Assembly: GCA_012728565.1 (NCBI GenBank)
Contig: JAAYEV010000103.1
Location: forward strand, 11-64,010
Direction of reading: 5' to 3'
Length of the DNA stretch: 64,000 bases
DNA from: Clostridiales bacterium
GTDB lineage: Bacteria > Bacillota > Clostridia > Ch29
Of this stretch, positions 160 to 63,861 are shown one piece after another. Below the pieces are notes generated by a model that was given only the letters and a program-made list of their open reading frames with translations, ran no database searches and was not told where the DNA came from. Position 1 is the stretch's first letter; the number at the start of each line of letters is the position of its first letter. Position numbers and translations under genes: made by a program.

Positions 160-858
160 TTAGTTGATTATGTCCGGCACAACGTTTAGGAACTCGTCTT
201 CCGGGACAAAGATGTAGCTTTGTGGAATGTCTCCTACTATAATGGTTTCCGCAACCGGTATTCGTGTCGCCACATCAACCACATCGCTGGCCAGCGGAAG
301 CACCACCCTTACCTGGGCATTAACCGCAAGGTAGATTTTATGCCTGGTCTGGTTAATTCCCGCCTCTTCAAAGTCGGTGATAAAATCCACAACAACTGTT
401 CCCATGGGCAGAATGTCGATATTAAACCTGGGCCCTAAGTTGGCAAATATTTCGCTTCCCAGCACGCTGCCCAGTGGAATGCCTACTTTCTTGGTGCCCA
501 TCTGTCTTAGGCTTTCCTGTATTCTTAATGCGGTTTCTGCGGCTATCCTATTCATGGACATGGTGTTTGCCTGCAGCATGGTAATCCTGTTTTCTTTGTC
601 GGTTTTAACCACAAACAGGTCTTCATATTTGACCTTATATGTAAGCTCGGACATAATGGCTTCGTTAATAACCTGCGTTGCGATGGTTTTTGCCCTCATT
701 TCGGATATGGCAAGCAGCAGCGGCTTTATATTATAATTTACCATCCAGCTTAAGAATAAAACAATTAATACTATTACTATTATAATTACAGAGCCCTTTA
801 TTTTTTTCCTAAGGGCCGACCTTTTGCCGAACCTTGCTCTAAACCTGGGCTTACCCAT
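160..858 (-). CDS. yunB: sporulation protein YunB
   Basis: ORF 160..930 resembles YunB and has an N-terminal TM helix. Start moved to the ATG ending at 858, which has GGAGG 7 nt upstream; in-frame ATGs further upstream lack an RBS. TAA stop at 160-162. Confidence 0.8.
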   Translation of the reverse strand: MGKPRFRARFGKRSALRKKIKGSVIIIVIVLIVLFLSWMVNYNIKPLLLAISEMRAKTIATQVINEAIMSELTYKVKYEDLFVVKTDKENRITMLQANTMSMNRIAAETALRIQESLRQMGTKKVGIPLGSVLGSEIFANLGPRFNIDILPMGTVVVDFITDFEEAGINQTRHKIYLAVNAQVRVVLPLASDVVDVATRIPVAETIIVGDIPQSYIFVPEDEFLNVVPDIIN

Positions 859-1062
859 AAAAAAACCTCCTTCCATATATATTATGTTGACGTATCGCCA
901 ATAGTCACACAGAAAATATAATGCGCACAAAACGGCTGGAGGCTTTTGTCACCGGCCTCCCATCGACATCCCGTCACAATTATTTATTTTTTTAAAGCAT
1001 TTGTGTTATAATCAGAATAATGTAATAAACTACACGCAGGGTCCCTCGGAGGAGGTATTATA

Positions 1063-3489
1063 ATGACAGATAAAAAAGGAGAAAAGAAAAAGAAAAGGCT
1101 GAGCGTTCTAAGGCTGATTATAATAGTATTTCTCTTGATCGCCTTCATAGGGGCGGGCGCGGCTGCCGGGATAGTGGCGGCCTATATCAAGGACGCCCCT
1201 GAAATTGGTACAGAGGACATTCTTCAGTTAAGACAGTCATCCATAGTATATGAAGAGGGCACCGGCGAAATAGTGGACAGGATCCACGCCGAGGTGAACC
1301 GGACTCTTGTTCACCTTGACGACGTTCCAAAGCACGTTCAGAATGCCTTTATTGCCATTGAGGATGAAAGGTTCAGGTCGCACTTTGGTATTGACATCAA
1401 AAGAATAATAGGGGTGACCATTCAAAACCTTAAGGAGCGAAGAATTGTAGCGGGTGCGAGCACCATAACGCAGCAGCTTGTAAGGAACGTGGTCCTTACC
1501 CAGGAACAAAAATTCAAAAGAAAGATACAGGAACAGTACCTTGCGATAAAACTGGAGAGGGTATTCACAAAGGACCAGATACTGGAGGCCTATTTGAATA
1601 CCATATACTTCGGTCACAGTGCCTACGGGATTCATGCGGCTTCCATGACCTATTTCGGCAAACATCCTTCCGAACTGACTTTGGCCGAGGGAGCGATGGT
1701 AGCCGGAGTTACAAATAACCCACGGCTTTATTCACCCTATCTTAATCCAGAGAATGCTAAAAAGCGCCAGGAACTGGTCCTTAGAAGCATGCTTAACCAG
1801 GGCTATATAAGCCAGCAGGAGTACGACAGTGCAGTACGGGAGGAACTGGAATATGTGAGGGGAGAGGTTGAGGAGGAGGAAATCGCAATATCCTCGTACT
1901 TTGTCGACCAGGTTAAGATTGACGTCAGGGAAGACCTGATGGAAAAGTATAACTACACCAAGGACGAGGCAAACAATCTTTTGTTCAACGGCGGACTGCA
2001 GATATACTCCACCATCGATTTAAAAATGCAGGAAATAGTGGAGAATGCCTTCAAGGACCCCGCAAACTTCCCGGAAACAAAGGAGGATGAAAAGGGAGTA
2101 CCGCAGCCCCAGGCGGCAATGGTAATAATTGATTACAAAACCGGGCAGGTGAAAGCCATGGTGGGCGGAAGGGGCCAAGAGGGGTCCATGCTGCTTAACC
2201 GCGCAACCCAGTCCTACCGCCAGCCCGGGTCTTCGATAAAACCCCTTTCGGTTTACACCGCCGCCATAGACAACGGTTACACGGCGGCAACCGTCATAGA
2301 TGACGTGCCGGTGGCCTTTATCGGCGGCGACGGGAAACTATGGATACCCAAGAACTGGTACACCGAAGGAGGACGCCCCACCTATTGGGGTTTAAGCACC
2401 CTCAGGGAAGGCCTCCAGTGGTCCATGAACGTGGTAACGGTGAAGCTTCTTAACGACCTGGGCATAGACATAGCCTTTGATTATGCCGAAAAGATGGGGA
2501 TTACAAGCCTTGTGAAAAGCGGCCCGGTGATGGACCGGAACCTTGCTTCCCTTGCCTTGGGCGGACTGACAAAGGGCGTATCACCCATTGACATGGCTAC
2601 CGCCTACGGCACCCTTGCCAACAAGGGGGTCCGGATAAAACCCATAACCTATGTCAGGGTAACCGACGCCAACGGAAACGTACTTCTTGAAAAGGAGCCT
2701 GTAAAAACAAGGGTAGTCGGCGAGGACGTAGCCTATATTGTAACTGATATGCTGAGGTCGGTCGTTAAGGGAGGTACCGGCACCAGCGCCAATTTCAACA
2801 TGCCGGTGGCCGGCAAAACGGGTACCACCACCGATTCGGTGGATGCATGGTTTGTTGGCTATACGCCCTATTACGTGGCATCCCTCTGGATGGGGAACGA
2901 CGAACCTTCAAACATGGGCTTTGGCGGAAGCTCATATCCCACCAGGCTGTGGAGAAAGGTCATGGAAGAAATCCACAAGGACCTACCGGTTATTGACTTT
3001 GAAAGGCCTGCAAACATTGTAACTAGGGCGGTGGATACAAAGTCCGGCAAGCTGCCCACCGACCTTTCCTACATGGACCCGCGTAATACCGTAAGAAATG
3101 AGCTGTTTATACAAGGTACCGAACCTACAGAATATGATGACGTACACGTGGTAAGGGACGTTGATGTGACCACCAATAAGCTGGCAACGCCCTTCTGCCC
3201 GCCCACGCTGGTGGAATCAAGGGTGTTCGTACAAAGACCGGTACCCTTTGACAGCGAACAGTTCCTGGAAAGCATAGGCGGGATAGACCCGAAAGTAAAC
3301 CTCGTACCCAGGGATGCCATCTACGATGTGCCTACAGAATACTGCCCGGCTCATAATCCCTTCGGAATACCCTGGGGGCAGAACGGGCAAAACGGGGGAT
3401 GGCCGCCCGGCGAAGAGCCCGGTGACGAAGAACCTGGAGAGGAGACAATCTTCGACCAGATAACAGATGAACTGCAAAATCAGGACTAA
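1063..3489 (+). CDS. class A penicillin-binding protein (bifunctional transglycosylase/transpeptidase, PBP1A-type)
   Basis: 808 aa with a Lys-rich N-terminus and a TM helix. Glycosyltransferase-51 motifs (IEDERFRSHFGID, RIIGV...TITQQL) are followed by transpeptidase motifs SSIK, SMN and KTGT. RBS GGAGGAGG sits upstream. Confidence 0.92.
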   Translation: MTDKKGEKKKKRLSVLRLIIIVFLLIAFIGAGAAAGIVAAYIKDAPEIGTEDILQLRQSSIVYEEGTGEIVDRIHAEVNRTLVHLDDVPKHVQNAFIAIEDERFRSHFGIDIKRIIGVTIQNLKERRIVAGASTITQQLVRNVVLTQEQKFKRKIQEQYLAIKLERVFTKDQILEAYLNTIYFGHSAYGIHAASMTYFGKHPSELTLAEGAMVAGVTNNPRLYSPYLNPENAKKRQELVLRSMLNQGYISQQEYDSAVREELEYVRGEVEEEEIAISSYFVDQVKIDVREDLMEKYNYTKDEANNLLFNGGLQIYSTIDLKMQEIVENAFKDPANFPETKEDEKGVPQPQAAMVIIDYKTGQVKAMVGGRGQEGSMLLNRATQSYRQPGSSIKPLSVYTAAIDNGYTAATVIDDVPVAFIGGDGKLWIPKNWYTEGGRPTYWGLSTLREGLQWSMNVVTVKLLNDLGIDIAFDYAEKMGITSLVKSGPVMDRNLASLALGGLTKGVSPIDMATAYGTLANKGVRIKPITYVRVTDANGNVLLEKEPVKTRVVGEDVAYIVTDMLRSVVKGGTGTSANFNMPVAGKTGTTTDSVDAWFVGYTPYYVASLWMGNDEPSNMGFGGSSYPTRLWRKVMEEIHKDLPVIDFERPANIVTRAVDTKSGKLPTDLSYMDPRNTVRNELFIQGTEPTEYDDVHVVRDVDVTTNKLATPFCPPTLVESRVFVQRPVPFDSEQFLESIGGIDPKVNLVPRDAIYDVPTEYCPAHNPFGIPWGQNGQNGGWPPGEEPGDEEPGEETIFDQITDELQNQD

Positions 3490-3497
3490 GGTCAATA

Positions 3498-3529
3498 GGT
3501 GCGGACAATCCGCACCTTTCTTTTCGTTT
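3498..3529 (+). terminator. rho-independent terminator after the PBP gene
   Basis: Perfect 8-bp stem GGTGCGGA / TCCGCACC with a CAA loop, followed by TTTCTTTTCGTTT. Confidence 0.7.
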
Positions 3530-3564
3530 GTCTTCATATTACGTCCCAAGGGCCCGTCATTTTT

Positions 3565-4128
3565 TTATTCCTGTCCCATTATTACGCGAAGGGCCTTGGT
3601 AAGCACCGGGGCGCCCAGGACACAGTCGTCCCGGCCGTTCATTTTGCCCGGGTCACCCACCCCGACAATAACGGGAACTTTAATAGTATTTAAAATTTCC
3701 AGGGTATCCCCGTAAACCACGCCGTTCCCCGACGGGTTTCCCAGCTTGTCCACCGACCCGCTTATTATATTGAGGCTGCTGTCCACCGAGCAGTCCACCT
3801 TAACCCCTTCAACGTCCTGTGTGTTTGAAGCCACCGCAATGACACCCAATATTTCTATGTCCTTAGACTCTGCAAGGCATTTTATCACCTTTTCGCCTTC
3901 CCCAAGCCCGGGCTTTCCCCTGTCATCCACCATCACCACCACCGGATCGGCAGGGGATTGTTTTATCATATCGATGATTTCATCACCACTAAGGGGCGTT
4001 GGATTCCCCGCCGACCGGGAGATGCACCTTCCCCCGACCTGGGCGGCGGCTGTCTCGGCAGCCTGCCTGGCAACATTGTCCCCGTCTGTAATTATGACCA
4101 CTTTGCGCCGTTTTTTGGACTTATCCAT
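3565..4128 (-). CDS. stage V sporulation protein AE-like soluble Toprim-like protein (SpoVAEa-type)
   Basis: ORF 3565..4176. Start placed at the ATG ending at 4128 with RBS AAAGGGAAACAGGGAA. The VVIITDGDNVARQAAE...GNPTPLSGDEIIDMIK motif is typical of the soluble SpoVAE N-terminal/Toprim-like protein, and the gene lies just downstream of spoIIA-sigF as in spoVA loci. Confidence 0.55.
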   Translation of the reverse strand: MDKSKKRRKVVIITDGDNVARQAAETAAAQVGGRCISRSAGNPTPLSGDEIIDMIKQSPADPVVVMVDDRGKPGLGEGEKVIKCLAESKDIEILGVIAVASNTQDVEGVKVDCSVDSSLNIISGSVDKLGNPSGNGVVYGDTLEILNTIKVPVIVGVGDPGKMNGRDDCVLGAPVLTKALRVIMGQE

Positions 4129-4267
4129 TTCCCTGTTTCCCTTTGCTTTTGTTCTGTATCCTGTGGATGATGTCATTTAATGTTTCAAAATCCGTCAAAT
4201 GCCTGGGCCTTAGTTTTGGCTGTCCCATATCCACCGGCGGGCTGTACTGCAGTGTATCTTTTTTCAT
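4121..4267 (-). CDS. candidate small protein (48 aa, MKKDTLQYSPPVDMGQPKLRPRHLTDFETLNDIIHRIQNKSKGKQGNG)
   Basis: Found by hand; too short for the ORF track. ATG at 4267 is preceded by AGGAGCTAAGAA (AGGAG at 7-nt spacing). Its TAA stop overlaps the downstream start as ATGGATAA, suggesting translational coupling to the SpoVAE-like gene. Confidence 0.3.
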   Translation of the reverse strand: MKKDTLQYSPPVDMGQPKLRPRHLTDFETLNDIIHRIQNKSKGKQGNG

Positions 4268-4270
4268 TTC

Positions 4271-4441
4271 TTAGCTCCTGTATACCAAACCCACACCGGT
4301 TGTTTCACAGCCTGTCATAACAAGCTTTGCCTTTTCAGGCTCCCTTCGCCGTTCGCCAAAGGCCATGATACAGGAACAGACCACAAGAACGGCCAGTACA
4401 AGCAGTATGAACCCCAGGACAGTTCCCTTCTTAAATTTCAT
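4271..4441 (-). CDS. small single-pass membrane protein (56 aa)
   Basis: ORF 4271..4459. Start at the ATG (MKFKKG) ending at 4441 with GGAGGGG 7 nt upstream. One hydrophobic helix (LGFILLVLAVLVVCSCIMAF). Confidence 0.4.
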   Translation of the reverse strand: MKFKKGTVLGFILLVLAVLVVCSCIMAFGERRREPEKAKLVMTGCETTGVGLVYRS

Positions 4442-4562
4442 TCCAACCCCTCCGTTCATGGTTTTAGTATTGTCCGTTTTCTCCTTTTAATTCAAAAAGA
4501 CCATGGCCCGGACTTGGGTGAAAACACAAAAATAAAAAAGGGCCCTTTATTAGTCCCTCTTT

Positions 4563-5309
4563 TTATTTGGTCATGGACTGCCTCATTTTATCCAGAACCC
4601 TTTTTTCTATACGGGATACCTGGACCTGGGATATGCCCAGCTTTTGAGCTATCTGCGTCTGGGTCCTGTCCTGGAAATACCGCATGATTATTATCTGCCT
4701 TTCCCTGGGCTTTAGCTTGTGGAGCATTTCCTTCAGTATAATCCTGTCCAGCATATCGCCGCTTTTATCTTCCTCCACAGCCACCTTGTCGATAAGAAAT
4801 ATCGGGGAACCGTCATCCTGGTGTATTGTATCGTAAAGGTATTCCGGCGCCGCGGCAGCATCCATCGCCAGTACTATGTCTTCATTTGAAACCCCCAGTT
4901 CCTCGGAAATCTCATTCAAGGTGGGCTCCCTTCCGTTATCCCTTATAAGCCTTTCCTTGGTTTGACGTATCCTTCCGCTTAGTTCCTTGAGTGACCGGCT
5001 CACTTTAACAATACCATCATCCCTTAAGAATCTCTTGATCTCACCGGCTATCATCGGAACGGCATAGGTGGAAAACCTAACATTATAATCAGGATTGAAA
5101 TTTTTAATGGCCTTAAGCAGGCCGATACTGCCTAGCTGGAACAGGTCTTCGTATTCATAGCCCCTGTTCAGAAAACGTTTGACTATGCTCTTTACAAGGC
5201 CGGTATTGTTTTTTAAAAGCAGGGACTGGGCTTCCTTGTCCCCCTGCTGGGCTTTTCTAATAAGCTGCAGCGTTTCCGCGTGGCTTAAGACCTCGGAATT
5301 ATCCCTCAT
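4563..5309 (-). CDS. sigF: sporulation sigma factor SigF (sigma-F)
   Basis: Sigma-70 regions 2-4 are present ([35 protein letters not shown]; C-terminal [23 protein letters not shown]). The start overlaps the spoIIAB end by 11 nt, as is typical of the spoIIA operon. Confidence 0.93.
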
Positions 5310-5760
5310 TGCCACTAACCCCTTGTCCCTTTGCCAGTGAAGCAAATTTTTTTCTCATAATCACAACCGTTCCTTTGCCTTTTTCGGAATGCACCTCCAC
5401 CTCGTCCATGAATGTCTCCATCACTGTAAAACCCATCCCCGACCTCTCCAACTCCGGTTTGGAGGTGTAAAGGGGCTGCCTGGCCTGCTCCACGTCCTCG
5501 ATACCTTTTCCCTCATCCCTCACCTCGATTTCCACCCCGTGTTCGTCCATGCGGCATTTTATGATTATAATGCCTTCACAGTCTTCGTACCCGTGAATTA
5601 TGGAATTTGTAACCGCTTCTGAAACCGCTGTCTTAATATCGGCCAATTCCTCGATGGTGGGGTCCAGCTGCGAGGCAAAGGCGGCGGTGGCTACCCTTGC
5701 AAAGGCTTCATTCTGGGATTTACTGGGTATTCTAAGCTCCATAAAATTTTTCACATTCAT
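5299..5760 (-). CDS. spoIIAB: anti-sigma F factor SpoIIAB (serine kinase)
   Basis: GHKL ATPase motifs ([45 protein letters not shown]) align closely with B. subtilis SpoIIAB. RBS AGGGGGTGAAAA upstream. Confidence 0.93.
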
Positions 5761-5773
5761 CGATTTTCACCCC

Positions 5774-6109
5774 CTAAAGGTCATTAACTGCTTTGCTTAT
5801 ACTGCTGTAAGATTTTATTATATCGTATATGCCCGATACCTCTAAAACACGGGACACCTGATTGTTTTCATTGACAACCGCAACCTTGCCTCCCCTGAGA
5901 TTTACCTTCTTAAACCTGCCAATCAGCACCCCTATTCCCGAGCTGTCCATAAAGCTTAAATGGGTCAGGTCCAGTATCAGGTGCTTGACCGGGTTGTTTT
6001 CCAGACCGCGGTCCACAAAGTCCCTGAACTCCTCCGCAGTATGGTGGTCAAGTTCCCCTTTAACCCTGCATATAAGAATATTGCCTGTGACCTTCGCAGT
6101 AAGGTCCAT
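5774..6109 (-). CDS. spoIIAA: anti-sigma F factor antagonist SpoIIAA (STAS domain)
   Basis: 111-aa STAS protein with the phosphorylatable Ser context LTHLSFMDSSGIGVLIGRF. First gene of the spoIIAA-AB-sigF operon; RBS GGGAGGGATGA. Confidence 0.92.
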   Translation of the reverse strand: MDLTAKVTGNILICRVKGELDHHTAEEFRDFVDRGLENNPVKHLILDLTHLSFMDSSGIGVLIGRFKKVNLRGGKVAVVNENNQVSRVLEVSGIYDIIKSYSSISKAVNDL

Positions 6110-62739: not shown

Positions 62740-63861
62740 ATGAATAACAATACACAAAAACAATCCCCTTTAATAAGGTTGGACTGGATAAAAGAAAGAA
62801 ACCCGAAACTTACAATAATATCGTTACTGCTGCTGGGCATATTCCTTTATATTGCAGATAACAGGTTTGACGCCTACCAGGTCAGGGTTTTAAACCTTTG
62901 CGCCATATATACGGTACTGGGCCTCAGCATGAACCTGATAAACGGTTTTACAGGACTGTTTTCGCTGGGTCATGCAGGTTTTATGGCAATCGGAGCCTAT
63001 ACCTGCGCACTGTTAACCATGCCGGTGGCGGTAAAGGACCAGAACTTCTTTCTGGAGCCAATAAATGAGGTGCTGCGCACAATAGTGCTGCCGTACCCTG
63101 CGGCACTGCTTGTGGGAGGAATATTCGCCGCCCTTATGGCGTTCTTAATAGGTGCCCCGGTGTTAAGGCTTAAGGGTGACTATCTGGGTATCGCCACGCT
63201 GGGCTTCGCGGAGATAATAAGGATAGTTATAACAAATCTCCAGACCATAACCAACGGGGCATTGGGCCTAAAAAGCATACCGGCCAAAACAAACCTGTGG
63301 TGGAGCTATGGCATAGCAGTTTTTACGACGGTGTTTCTTGTTTGGCTCATAAACAGCAGCTATGGAAGAGCCTTCAAGGCAATCCGGGAGGACGAAATTG
63401 CCGCCGAAGCCATGGGTATAAACCTTTTTAAACATAAGGTGCTTTCCTTTGTAATAGGCGCGTTTTTTGCCGGAGTGGGCGGAGGCCTGCTTGGAAACCT
63501 CCTGGGCGCGATAAACCCGCTGCTCTTTAGGTTCACATTGACCTTTAATATACTGCTTATTATAGTCCTTGGCGGCATGGGCAGCATAACGGGTACCATC
63601 ATATCCGCCTTCATAGTCACCATAGGCCAGGAAGCCTTGAGGTTCTTGGACCAGCCCTTCAGCCTCGGGTTCATCCAGGTACCCGGTATTTCCGGCTTGA
63701 GGATGGTGGTATTCTCGGCCCTTTTGATGCTGGTGGTGCTGTTCTTCCGCAGGGGCCTTATGGGTACTAATGAGTTCAGCTGGGACAGCTTTATAGGTTT
63801 TTTCAAGAATTTAGGCAAAGGGCCGGGAAAACCTCTTTCAAAAGGGGGAACTGAATCATGA
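62740..63861 (+). CDS. livM: branched-chain amino acid ABC transporter permease
   Basis: LivM-type permease. Confidence 0.88.

Follow-up and report, generated by a model that had tools for sequence, protein, structure and literature searches.

The window analysed here is a 64,000-nucleotide (64-kb) stretch of DNA from a Clostridiales bacterium (assembly GCA_012728565.1, contig JAAYEV010000103.1), and our subject is two small open reading frames (ORFs), ORF1 and ORF2, that lie in it between sigF and the spoVA gene spoVAEa, all on the minus strand. The sigF gene (4563..5309, −; TIGR02885 spore_sigF, E 3.8e-105, above cutoff) is the last gene of spoIIAA–spoIIAB–sigF and runs into the intrinsic terminator of the sigF/spoIIA unit (4527..4563, −), in which a hairpin at 4563..4534 with a folding energy of −10.5 kcal/mol precedes a T-run. 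Beyond it lies a putative forespore (sigma-G/F-type) promoter-like motif (4465..4493, −), made up of GAATT at 4493..4489, a 17-nt spacer and AATACTA at 4471..4465. In the ORF listing, ORF1 (4271..4441, −) encodes a 56-aa single-pass membrane peptide and ORF2 (4121..4267, −) a 48-aa basic, soluble one. The ribosome-binding site (RBS) of ORF1, GGAGGGG (4447..4453, −), is placed 7 nt 5′ of ATG 4441, and that of ORF2, AGGAG (4275..4279, −), falls within the last ORF1 codons, 7 nt 5′ of ATG 4267. The two ORFs share a reading frame (4441 − 4267 = 174 nt, or 58 codons), with TAA-GAA between them, and the ORF2 stop overlaps the start of the 187-aa spoVAEa (3565..4128, −) at 4128, within ATGGATAA. ORF1, ORF2 and spoVAEa form a separate unit directly 3′ of spoIIAA–spoIIAB–sigF, the canonical position of spoVA.

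A preliminary description of this DNA had already reported the two ORFs between sigF and a SpoVAE-like gene, their well-spaced RBSs, the shared frame and the overlap with the next start, all of which are present. It had also called the ORFs unannotated, which does not hold: NCBI records of metagenome-assembled genomes carry both, side by side and labelled 'hypothetical protein' (PK684_06130/06135 and VFF83_06160/06165 are examples). Pfam places the SpoVAE-like product as SpoVAEa, with a PF14097 match over residues 9–184 (E 2.8e-70) whose score of 236 bits is above the cutoff of 27, and NF052647, with 199.4 bits, falls marginally short of its cutoff of 200. Some gene callers use an alternative start at 4176, which yields a 203-aa protein and a 56-nt overlap with ORF2. 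We prefer 4128 because the 4176 ATG is lost in one close relative (locus L005) and the first residue that the Pfam model covers is number 9 in the 187-aa protein. The preferred ATG lies inside ORF2 codons N47–G48, and its own RBS is weak; spoVAEa translation is therefore likely to be coupled to ORF2 through the overlap. In the metagenome contig of another relative (L008, 10332..11010), spoVAEa is split into ORFs of 92 and 122 aa, owing either to a frameshift or to faulty assembly; L007, which is nearly identical, has the gene intact.

The ORF1 frame (4459..4271, −) encodes 62 aa from its first ATG and 56 aa from ATG 4441. The upstream ATG at 4459 has no RBS and lies ~6 nt past the predicted −10 element, which puts the predicted transcription start at about that ATG, and for this reason the 56-aa start is favoured as the likely one. 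The sequence GAACGGAGG at the ORF1 RBS is kept in relatives, including the divergent loci L014 and L028. The peptide is laid out as a basic N-terminus, a transmembrane (TM) helix at residues ~5–30, a juxtamembrane segment R-x-(K/R)-(E/K)-P-x-(K/R)-A-K-L-V and a variable tail. In the family alignment T7, G10, L14, R31, P35, A38, K39, L40 and V41 are invariant, and the succession of a TM helix and RxKEPxRAKLV recurs throughout the family, whose members have ~55–65 aa, a basic N-terminus and a single TM helix, and are encoded by the first cistron past the sigF terminator. An AlphaFold2 (AF2) model gives a confident helix, with predicted local distance difference test (pLDDT) values of 81–94 over residues 11–30. 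We rejected a lipoprotein assignment for ORF1, as the family alignment has no conserved lipobox cysteine.

In ORF2, the motif Y-x-[LP]-P-[VIA]-D-x8-R-H-x2-D-x-E precedes a helix, which AF2 predicts at residues 22–42 with a mean pLDDT of 72. We read the monomer models of both peptides for helix content only, as fold matches to single helices of 48–56 aa are meaningless. Residues Y8, P11, D13, R22, H23, D26, E28 and I37 are invariant in the family alignment, and the AGGAG of ORF2 is invariant among close relatives. Members of the ORF2 family are 48–58 aa long, share the motif and a C-terminal helix, and overlap the start of the next spoVA gene with their 3′ ends. ORF2 looks like a short docking motif joined to a helix.

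Neither peptide belongs to a described family in the collections searched. When both peptides and every family member were scanned against Pfam and NCBIfam, the only matches were below threshold and of the TM-bias type (for example, DUF6529, E 0.02), searches of PDB sequences with both profiles gave no meaningful match, and a word-based search of 5.8e9 proteins returned only close relatives, at 71–98% identity and always 48 aa or 56/62 aa long. As remnants of SpoVAA (PF12164) or SpoVAB (PF13782), ORF1 and ORF2 fared no better, with no Pfam match at E ≤ 1 for any member; tblastn with the L014 SpoVAA and SpoVAB proteins gave no match in the window, and in L014 both small ORFs stand beside intact spoVAA and spoVAB. 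An ORF2 hidden Markov model run against 1.84e9 representative proteins matched P0139 (E 1.4e-6) and P0142 (E 1.3e-4). A degenerate nucleotide pattern written for the residues invariant in ORF2 matched ten metagenome contigs, and all ten carry true members in the same context.

Because peptide searches reached no distant relatives, we used SpoVAEa as the query and examined the contexts of its homologues (54–79% identity). Profiles of ORF1 and ORF2 built from close relatives only were then run against 1186 six-frame ORFs of the distant loci, and they matched only the ORFs at the corresponding positions, with E values from 2e-22 to 1e-6. The ORF1 profile recovered those of L012, L013 and L014, with E values of 2e-22, 3e-17 and 2e-10, and the ORF2 profile those of L013, L012, L015 and L014, with E values of 2e-12, 3e-11, 2e-10 and 1e-6. 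These matches indicate that each peptide is a member of a small, undescribed protein family.

The close relatives keep the order sigF–ORF1–ORF2–spoVAEa–PBP1–yunB throughout, PBP1 being a class A penicillin-binding protein (PBP) gene, and the stop between the two ORFs is kept in all of them. The order from sigF to PBP1 is common to the window, L001–L012 and L018–L027, with L026 grouped with L013. Further away the spacing and the neighbours change. In L012 (SpoVAEa 79% identical), a 72-nt gap separates the ORF1-like and ORF2-like genes; in L013 and L026 (77%), the two overlap by 4 nt in different frames, and spoVAF follows spoVAEa. In L028 and L029 (75%), the gap is 173 nt and ORF2 is followed by spoVAC, spoVAD, spoVAEb and spoVAEa. 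L014 (67%) has the order sigF, ORF1-like gene, spoVAA, spoVAB, ORF2-like gene, spoVAC, spoVAD, spoVAEb, spoVAEa, spoVAF and PBP1, and L015 encodes a 58-aa ORF2-like peptide directly upstream of spoVAC. Judged by these gene orders, ORF1 in relatives represents the first spoVA cistron, before spoVAA, and ORF2 a cistron between spoVAB and spoVAC. A 311-aa gene without a Pfam match lies between spoVAF and the convergent PBP1 in L013 (6146..7081) and also in L026.

Further out, L017 of Crassaminicella profunda (54%) has the full A–B–C–D–Eb–Ea–F operon. A 52-aa ORF directly upstream of its spoVAA (1719..1877 of the locus; CP082326.1, about 1214456..1214614) is missing from the gene calls; hhalign aligns it to the ORF1 profile over 42 columns with 83% probability, RAKLV included. 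A 57-aa ORF of L016 matched the ORF1 profile only locally, over 12 residues of the motif. Small ORFs occur at the ORF1 and ORF2 positions of L016 (2617..2790 and 2890..3024) and L017 (2948..3112; 54 aa), and hhalign found no significant similarity between those at the ORF2 position and the ORF2 profile. These small ORFs may be homologues that have diverged fast, or analogues with no relation to ORF1 and ORF2.

Clear homologues are confined to one narrow clade of Clostridia, most of it uncultured, which record titles and sample names place in anaerobic digesters and biogas reactors. Three metagenome contigs (L020, LFRM01016091.1; L021, LSQX01010455.1; L025, CZCB01015101.1) encode an ORF2 peptide identical to that of the window, with SigF 100% and PBP1 99.5–100% identical, and hence represent repeated sampling of the same organism. 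The locus is also carried by the assemblies GCA_900198705.1 (contig FZPS01000165.1), JAXGPT01 and DASRVG01. A further assembly of the same locus (L010), with low coverage (0.43x) and many broken genes, including spoVAEa and PBP1, was left out of the evolutionary analysis.

Substitution patterns point to translation of both ORFs. ORF1 and ORF2 are open in every relative examined. Among close lineages, the ratio of nonsynonymous to synonymous substitution rates (dN/dS) is 0.22–0.55 for ORF1 and 0.10–0.42 for ORF2, with 0.13–0.22 for SpoVAEa and 0.01–0.05 for SigF. The corresponding ratio of uncorrected differences (pN/pS) is lowest of the six frames in the called one, at 0.40 for ORF1 and 0.25 for ORF2 compared with 0.45–1.5 in the others. 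In distant pairs, pS is saturated at 0.7–0.9 and pN is 0.2–0.4. Pooling three phylogenetically independent pairs, all within lineages with the reduced locus, gave a pN/pS of 0.27 for ORF1 (Fisher p 1.2e-10) and 0.40 for ORF2 (Fisher p 2.3e-6). These ratios indicate that ORF1 and ORF2 are protein-coding and still constrained, two distinct genes under purifying selection.

The features upstream of ORF1 are also shared. Equivalents of the sigF terminator in L012, L013 and L014 consist of a hairpin and a T-run, with differing stems (z −3.9, −4.3 and −2.5). The sigma-G consensus of Bacillus subtilis is GHATR-N17/18-CATNHTA. A refined form of the window motif, G[ACT]ATT-N17/18-AATA[AC]TA, occurs once in the window, with 0.15 occurrences expected, and exactly once each in L013, L014, L016, L017, L018 and L028 (76 kb, both strands). 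Each time it lies ~25–35 nt upstream of the ORF1 RBS, in intergenic regions that otherwise cannot be aligned. The exact promoter string of the window has no match in the relatives' loci, which differ from it by single bases, and a promoter and terminator scan of the region found no sigma-70 promoter. We interpret ORF1–ORF2–spoVAEa as a predicted three-gene unit past the sigF terminator, behind a conserved motif of the forespore (sigma-G/F-like) type. Elsewhere in the window, the sole exact match to the strict sigma-G consensus (63575..63603, +) falls inside a LivM-like ABC permease gene (62740..63861) and is a chance occurrence.

The remaining neighbours frame this unit. Upstream of sigF lie spoIIAB (5760..5299, −) and spoIIAA (6109..5774, −). 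On the other side, spoVAEa is flanked by the convergent PBP1 gene (1063..3489, +), beyond which lies a yunB-like gene (930..160, −). A palindromic hairpin at 3497..3517, called as a plus-strand terminator with nine pairs, six of them G-C, is common to the two converging units; we infer that the spoVAEa unit also terminates there, on a poor minus-strand T-run. A 110-aa ORF (3217..3549, −) antisense to the PBP1 3′ end has no family match and is probably spurious; that its frame stays open in L001 and L002 is due only to the conserved gene on the opposite strand.

In B. subtilis, sigF is followed by the seven-gene sigma-G operon spoVAA–AB–AC–AD–AEb–AEa–AF (PMC9186386, PMC11841064). The gene order of L014 and L017 is the same as in B. 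subtilis, which argues that the full operon is ancestral. In the window, tblastn with a relative's proteins as queries found none of SpoVAA, SpoVAB, SpoVAC, SpoVAD, SpoVAEb and SpoVAF in the 64 kb, SpoVAEa being the sole match, so that the set SpoVAC, SpoVAD and SpoVAEb, the minimal dipicolinic acid (DPA) channel, is absent from this stretch. The preliminary description had correctly noted that spoVAC and spoVAD are missing from this position, and they appear to have been deleted from an ancestral, Bacillus-like gene order of the kind still seen in relatives; spoVAC, spoVAD and spoVAEb stand at the homologous position in L014, L016, L017 and L028.

Several features suggest that the deletions took place in situ. 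The gene after ORF2 starts at the same aligned position (A-ATG-GA in the N-G codons) whether it is spoVAC (L014, L028) or spoVAEa (window, L012, L013), and the spoVAEa start context differs where spoVAEa comes after spoVAEb. SpoVAF fragments, representing C-terminal and middle parts, survive 3′ of spoVAEa in L023 (3069..3197) and L028 (5619..5770), as if spoVAF had decayed there in lineages that lost it; none survives in the window. We found no significant SpoVAA or SpoVAB remnant in the interval from ORF1 to ORF2 of L012 and L028. The constant start position and the surviving fragments argue for in-place deletion, by which a nine-cistron ancestor would have given rise to the window arrangement. 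The series L014, L028, L013 and window, with nine, six, four and three cistrons, would then record a stepwise loss of A–B, C–D–Eb and F. In the window lineage, spoVAA–AB, spoVAC–AD–AEb and spoVAF are absent from the locus, while both small genes are kept and constrained. Gao et al. (PMC9186386) report C, D and Eb in all endospore formers, and a second spoVAC/AD/AEb locus is accordingly to be expected elsewhere in this genome.

Taken together, the best explanation, and one that we hold to be probable, is that ORF1 and ORF2 are two constrained small genes of the spoVA operon that now stand as the first cistrons of a deletion-reduced ORF1–ORF2–spoVAEa unit. This agrees with one of two alternatives raised in the preliminary description, that of coupled micro-proteins of a forespore spoVA-like unit, as both are conserved cistrons in the full spoVA operons of relatives. 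Some observations weigh against it. Constraint on the small ORFs is moderate, given that their dN/dS (0.1–0.55) exceeds that of SpoVAEa and SigF. The members with strong similarity all come from uncultured metagenome lineages, and the families may be narrow, because the small ORFs of L016 and the 54-aa ORF of L017 lack significant similarity to ORF2. The promoter-like motif GAATT-N17-AATACTA agrees with the sigma-G consensus at 9/11 positions, a score reached 394 times in the window and not significant alone, so that it amounts to a resemblance to the consensus, and its refined form was defined post hoc; the preliminary description had suggested looking for sigF–sigG promoter motifs upstream, and this conserved motif is a candidate for one. 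Retention of ORF1 could partly stem from its promoter-adjacent position and that of ORF2 from its service as the start signal for the next gene, and the physical partners of both peptides are pure inference.

The main rival takes up both of these retention effects. According to it, ORF1 and ORF2 are real genes that act mainly in cis, ORF1 by providing a promoter-proximal RBS and ORF2 a coupling start signal, and the peptides themselves have no SpoVA role or an unrelated role in the forespore. The last ORF2 codons indeed always hold the start of the next gene, whose own RBS is weak; dN/dS above that of the neighbouring genes, and positional small ORFs of distant operons that are unrelated in sequence, would also fit. 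A cis role does not, however, account for invariant residues that are spread along the whole of ORF2, or for RxKEPxRAKLV in ORF1, which is far from any start signal. Moreover, two separate deletions spared ORF2 precisely, and the constraint outlasts the deletions. We consider a mainly cis-acting role improbable on this balance, and the interpretation as constrained spoVA-operon genes better founded.

Far less probable still is a reading in which both ORFs are open by chance alone, within a non-coding RNA that is conserved as the leader or a regulator of spoVAEa. In its favour are the shortness of the region, the invariance of some DNA stretches in close relatives and the lack of a family match for either peptide. 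Against it, an Rfam 15 scan of 3400..4700 gave no match at E ≤ 1, and of the six frames it is the called one in which pN/pS is lowest. The amino-acid motifs persist in distant pairs despite saturated synonymous sites, and orthologues stand before spoVAA or between spoVAB and spoVAC, contexts that no spoVAEa leader explains. The other alternative of the preliminary description, a single gene of ~106 aa inactivated by a nonsense TAA, has in its favour the shared frame with only TAA-GAA between the halves and can be dismissed with near certainty, because the ORFs lie in different frames in L013, are separated by two genes (spoVAA–spoVAB) in L014 and by gaps in L012 and L028, keep the intervening stop in all close relatives at ~14% DNA divergence, each have their own RBS and signature of purifying selection, and are nowhere fused in the 5.8e9 or 1.8e9 protein sets. 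Of the search for conservation or fusion in related genomes, then, conservation was borne out and fusion was not, and it is by coincidence that the ORFs share a frame in the window.

What the two constrained spoVA-operon genes do can be addressed through their candidate partner. The SpoVA complex imports and releases Ca-dipicolinate (Ca-DPA), which is key to spore heat resistance and germination; its accessory parts A, B, Ea and F/FigP are still being worked out. SpoVAEa is soluble, yet it has been reported at the spore inner membrane, where it affects Ca-DPA release and is dispensable for DPA uptake (PMC11841064). A soluble protein at a membrane, next to a membrane peptide and a docking-type peptide, makes a tether and an adaptor a natural hypothesis. 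ORF1 and ORF2 would be accessory SpoVA subunits acting at the inner membrane of the forespore, ORF1 as a membrane tether and ORF2 as a docking adaptor for soluble SpoVAEa, for the C–D–Eb channel, or for both, and together they might tune Ca-DPA release at germination. We put forward this assignment, with its candidate partners, as a tentative one. A broader form of it, which we think somewhat more doubtful, would make ORF1 and ORF2 unrecognised clostridial SpoVA subunits working with SpoVAEa, so that the operon would generally comprise nine cistrons rather than seven, counterparts would exist in many operons and the reduced unit would form a regulatory module, minimal and complete in itself, that can be separated from C–D–Eb. 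Such fast-evolving counterparts may include the 52-aa Crassaminicella ORF before spoVAA and, in L016 and L017, the small ORFs that precede spoVAC.

The findings add to the spoVA operon two small-protein families that had not been described, together with ORF1–ORF2–spoVAEa as a module that reduction in nature has left. Kept with SpoVAEa through what appear to be successive deletions that removed all other spoVA genes from the locus, ORF1 and ORF2 are concrete candidate partners, especially for SpoVAEa, which has no assigned mechanism, and the series of loci can be read as a natural deletion experiment on separable parts of the operon.

The unit can be compared with several known systems. It is like the B. 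subtilis spoVA operon in its position after sigF and in the presence of SpoVAEa, and its putative, separate forespore-type promoter past a terminator would be a further likeness. It differs in that the window keeps Ea only, preceded by two small genes, with C, D and Eb not at the locus; to our knowledge, no small cistron precedes spoVAA or separates spoVAB from spoVAC in B. subtilis. In heat-resistant Bacillus spores, the spoVA2mob operon encodes, with spoVAC, spoVAD and spoVAEb, small DUF1657 proteins of unassigned function; ORF1 and ORF2 have no Pfam match to DUF1657 at E ≤ 1, and the operon context differs. FigP (YqhR), a recently recognised membrane partner of SpoVAF (PMC10903944, PMC11841064), illustrates that accessory subunits of the SpoVA and germination apparatus can go overlooked for decades. 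Unlike ORF1 and ORF2, FigP has its gene elsewhere than in the operon and is a much larger protein, with experimental proof of both its partnership and its ion-channel activity, and the window lineage has no spoVAF; we claim no similarity to it. The closest likeness in architecture is to small single-pass accessory subunits of bacterial membrane transport complexes, such as KdpF, AcrZ, CydX and MgtS. With no sequence relationship to these proteins, ORF1 resembles them in its size of ~50 aa, its single TM helix and its predicted co-transcription with the complex that we propose it serves.

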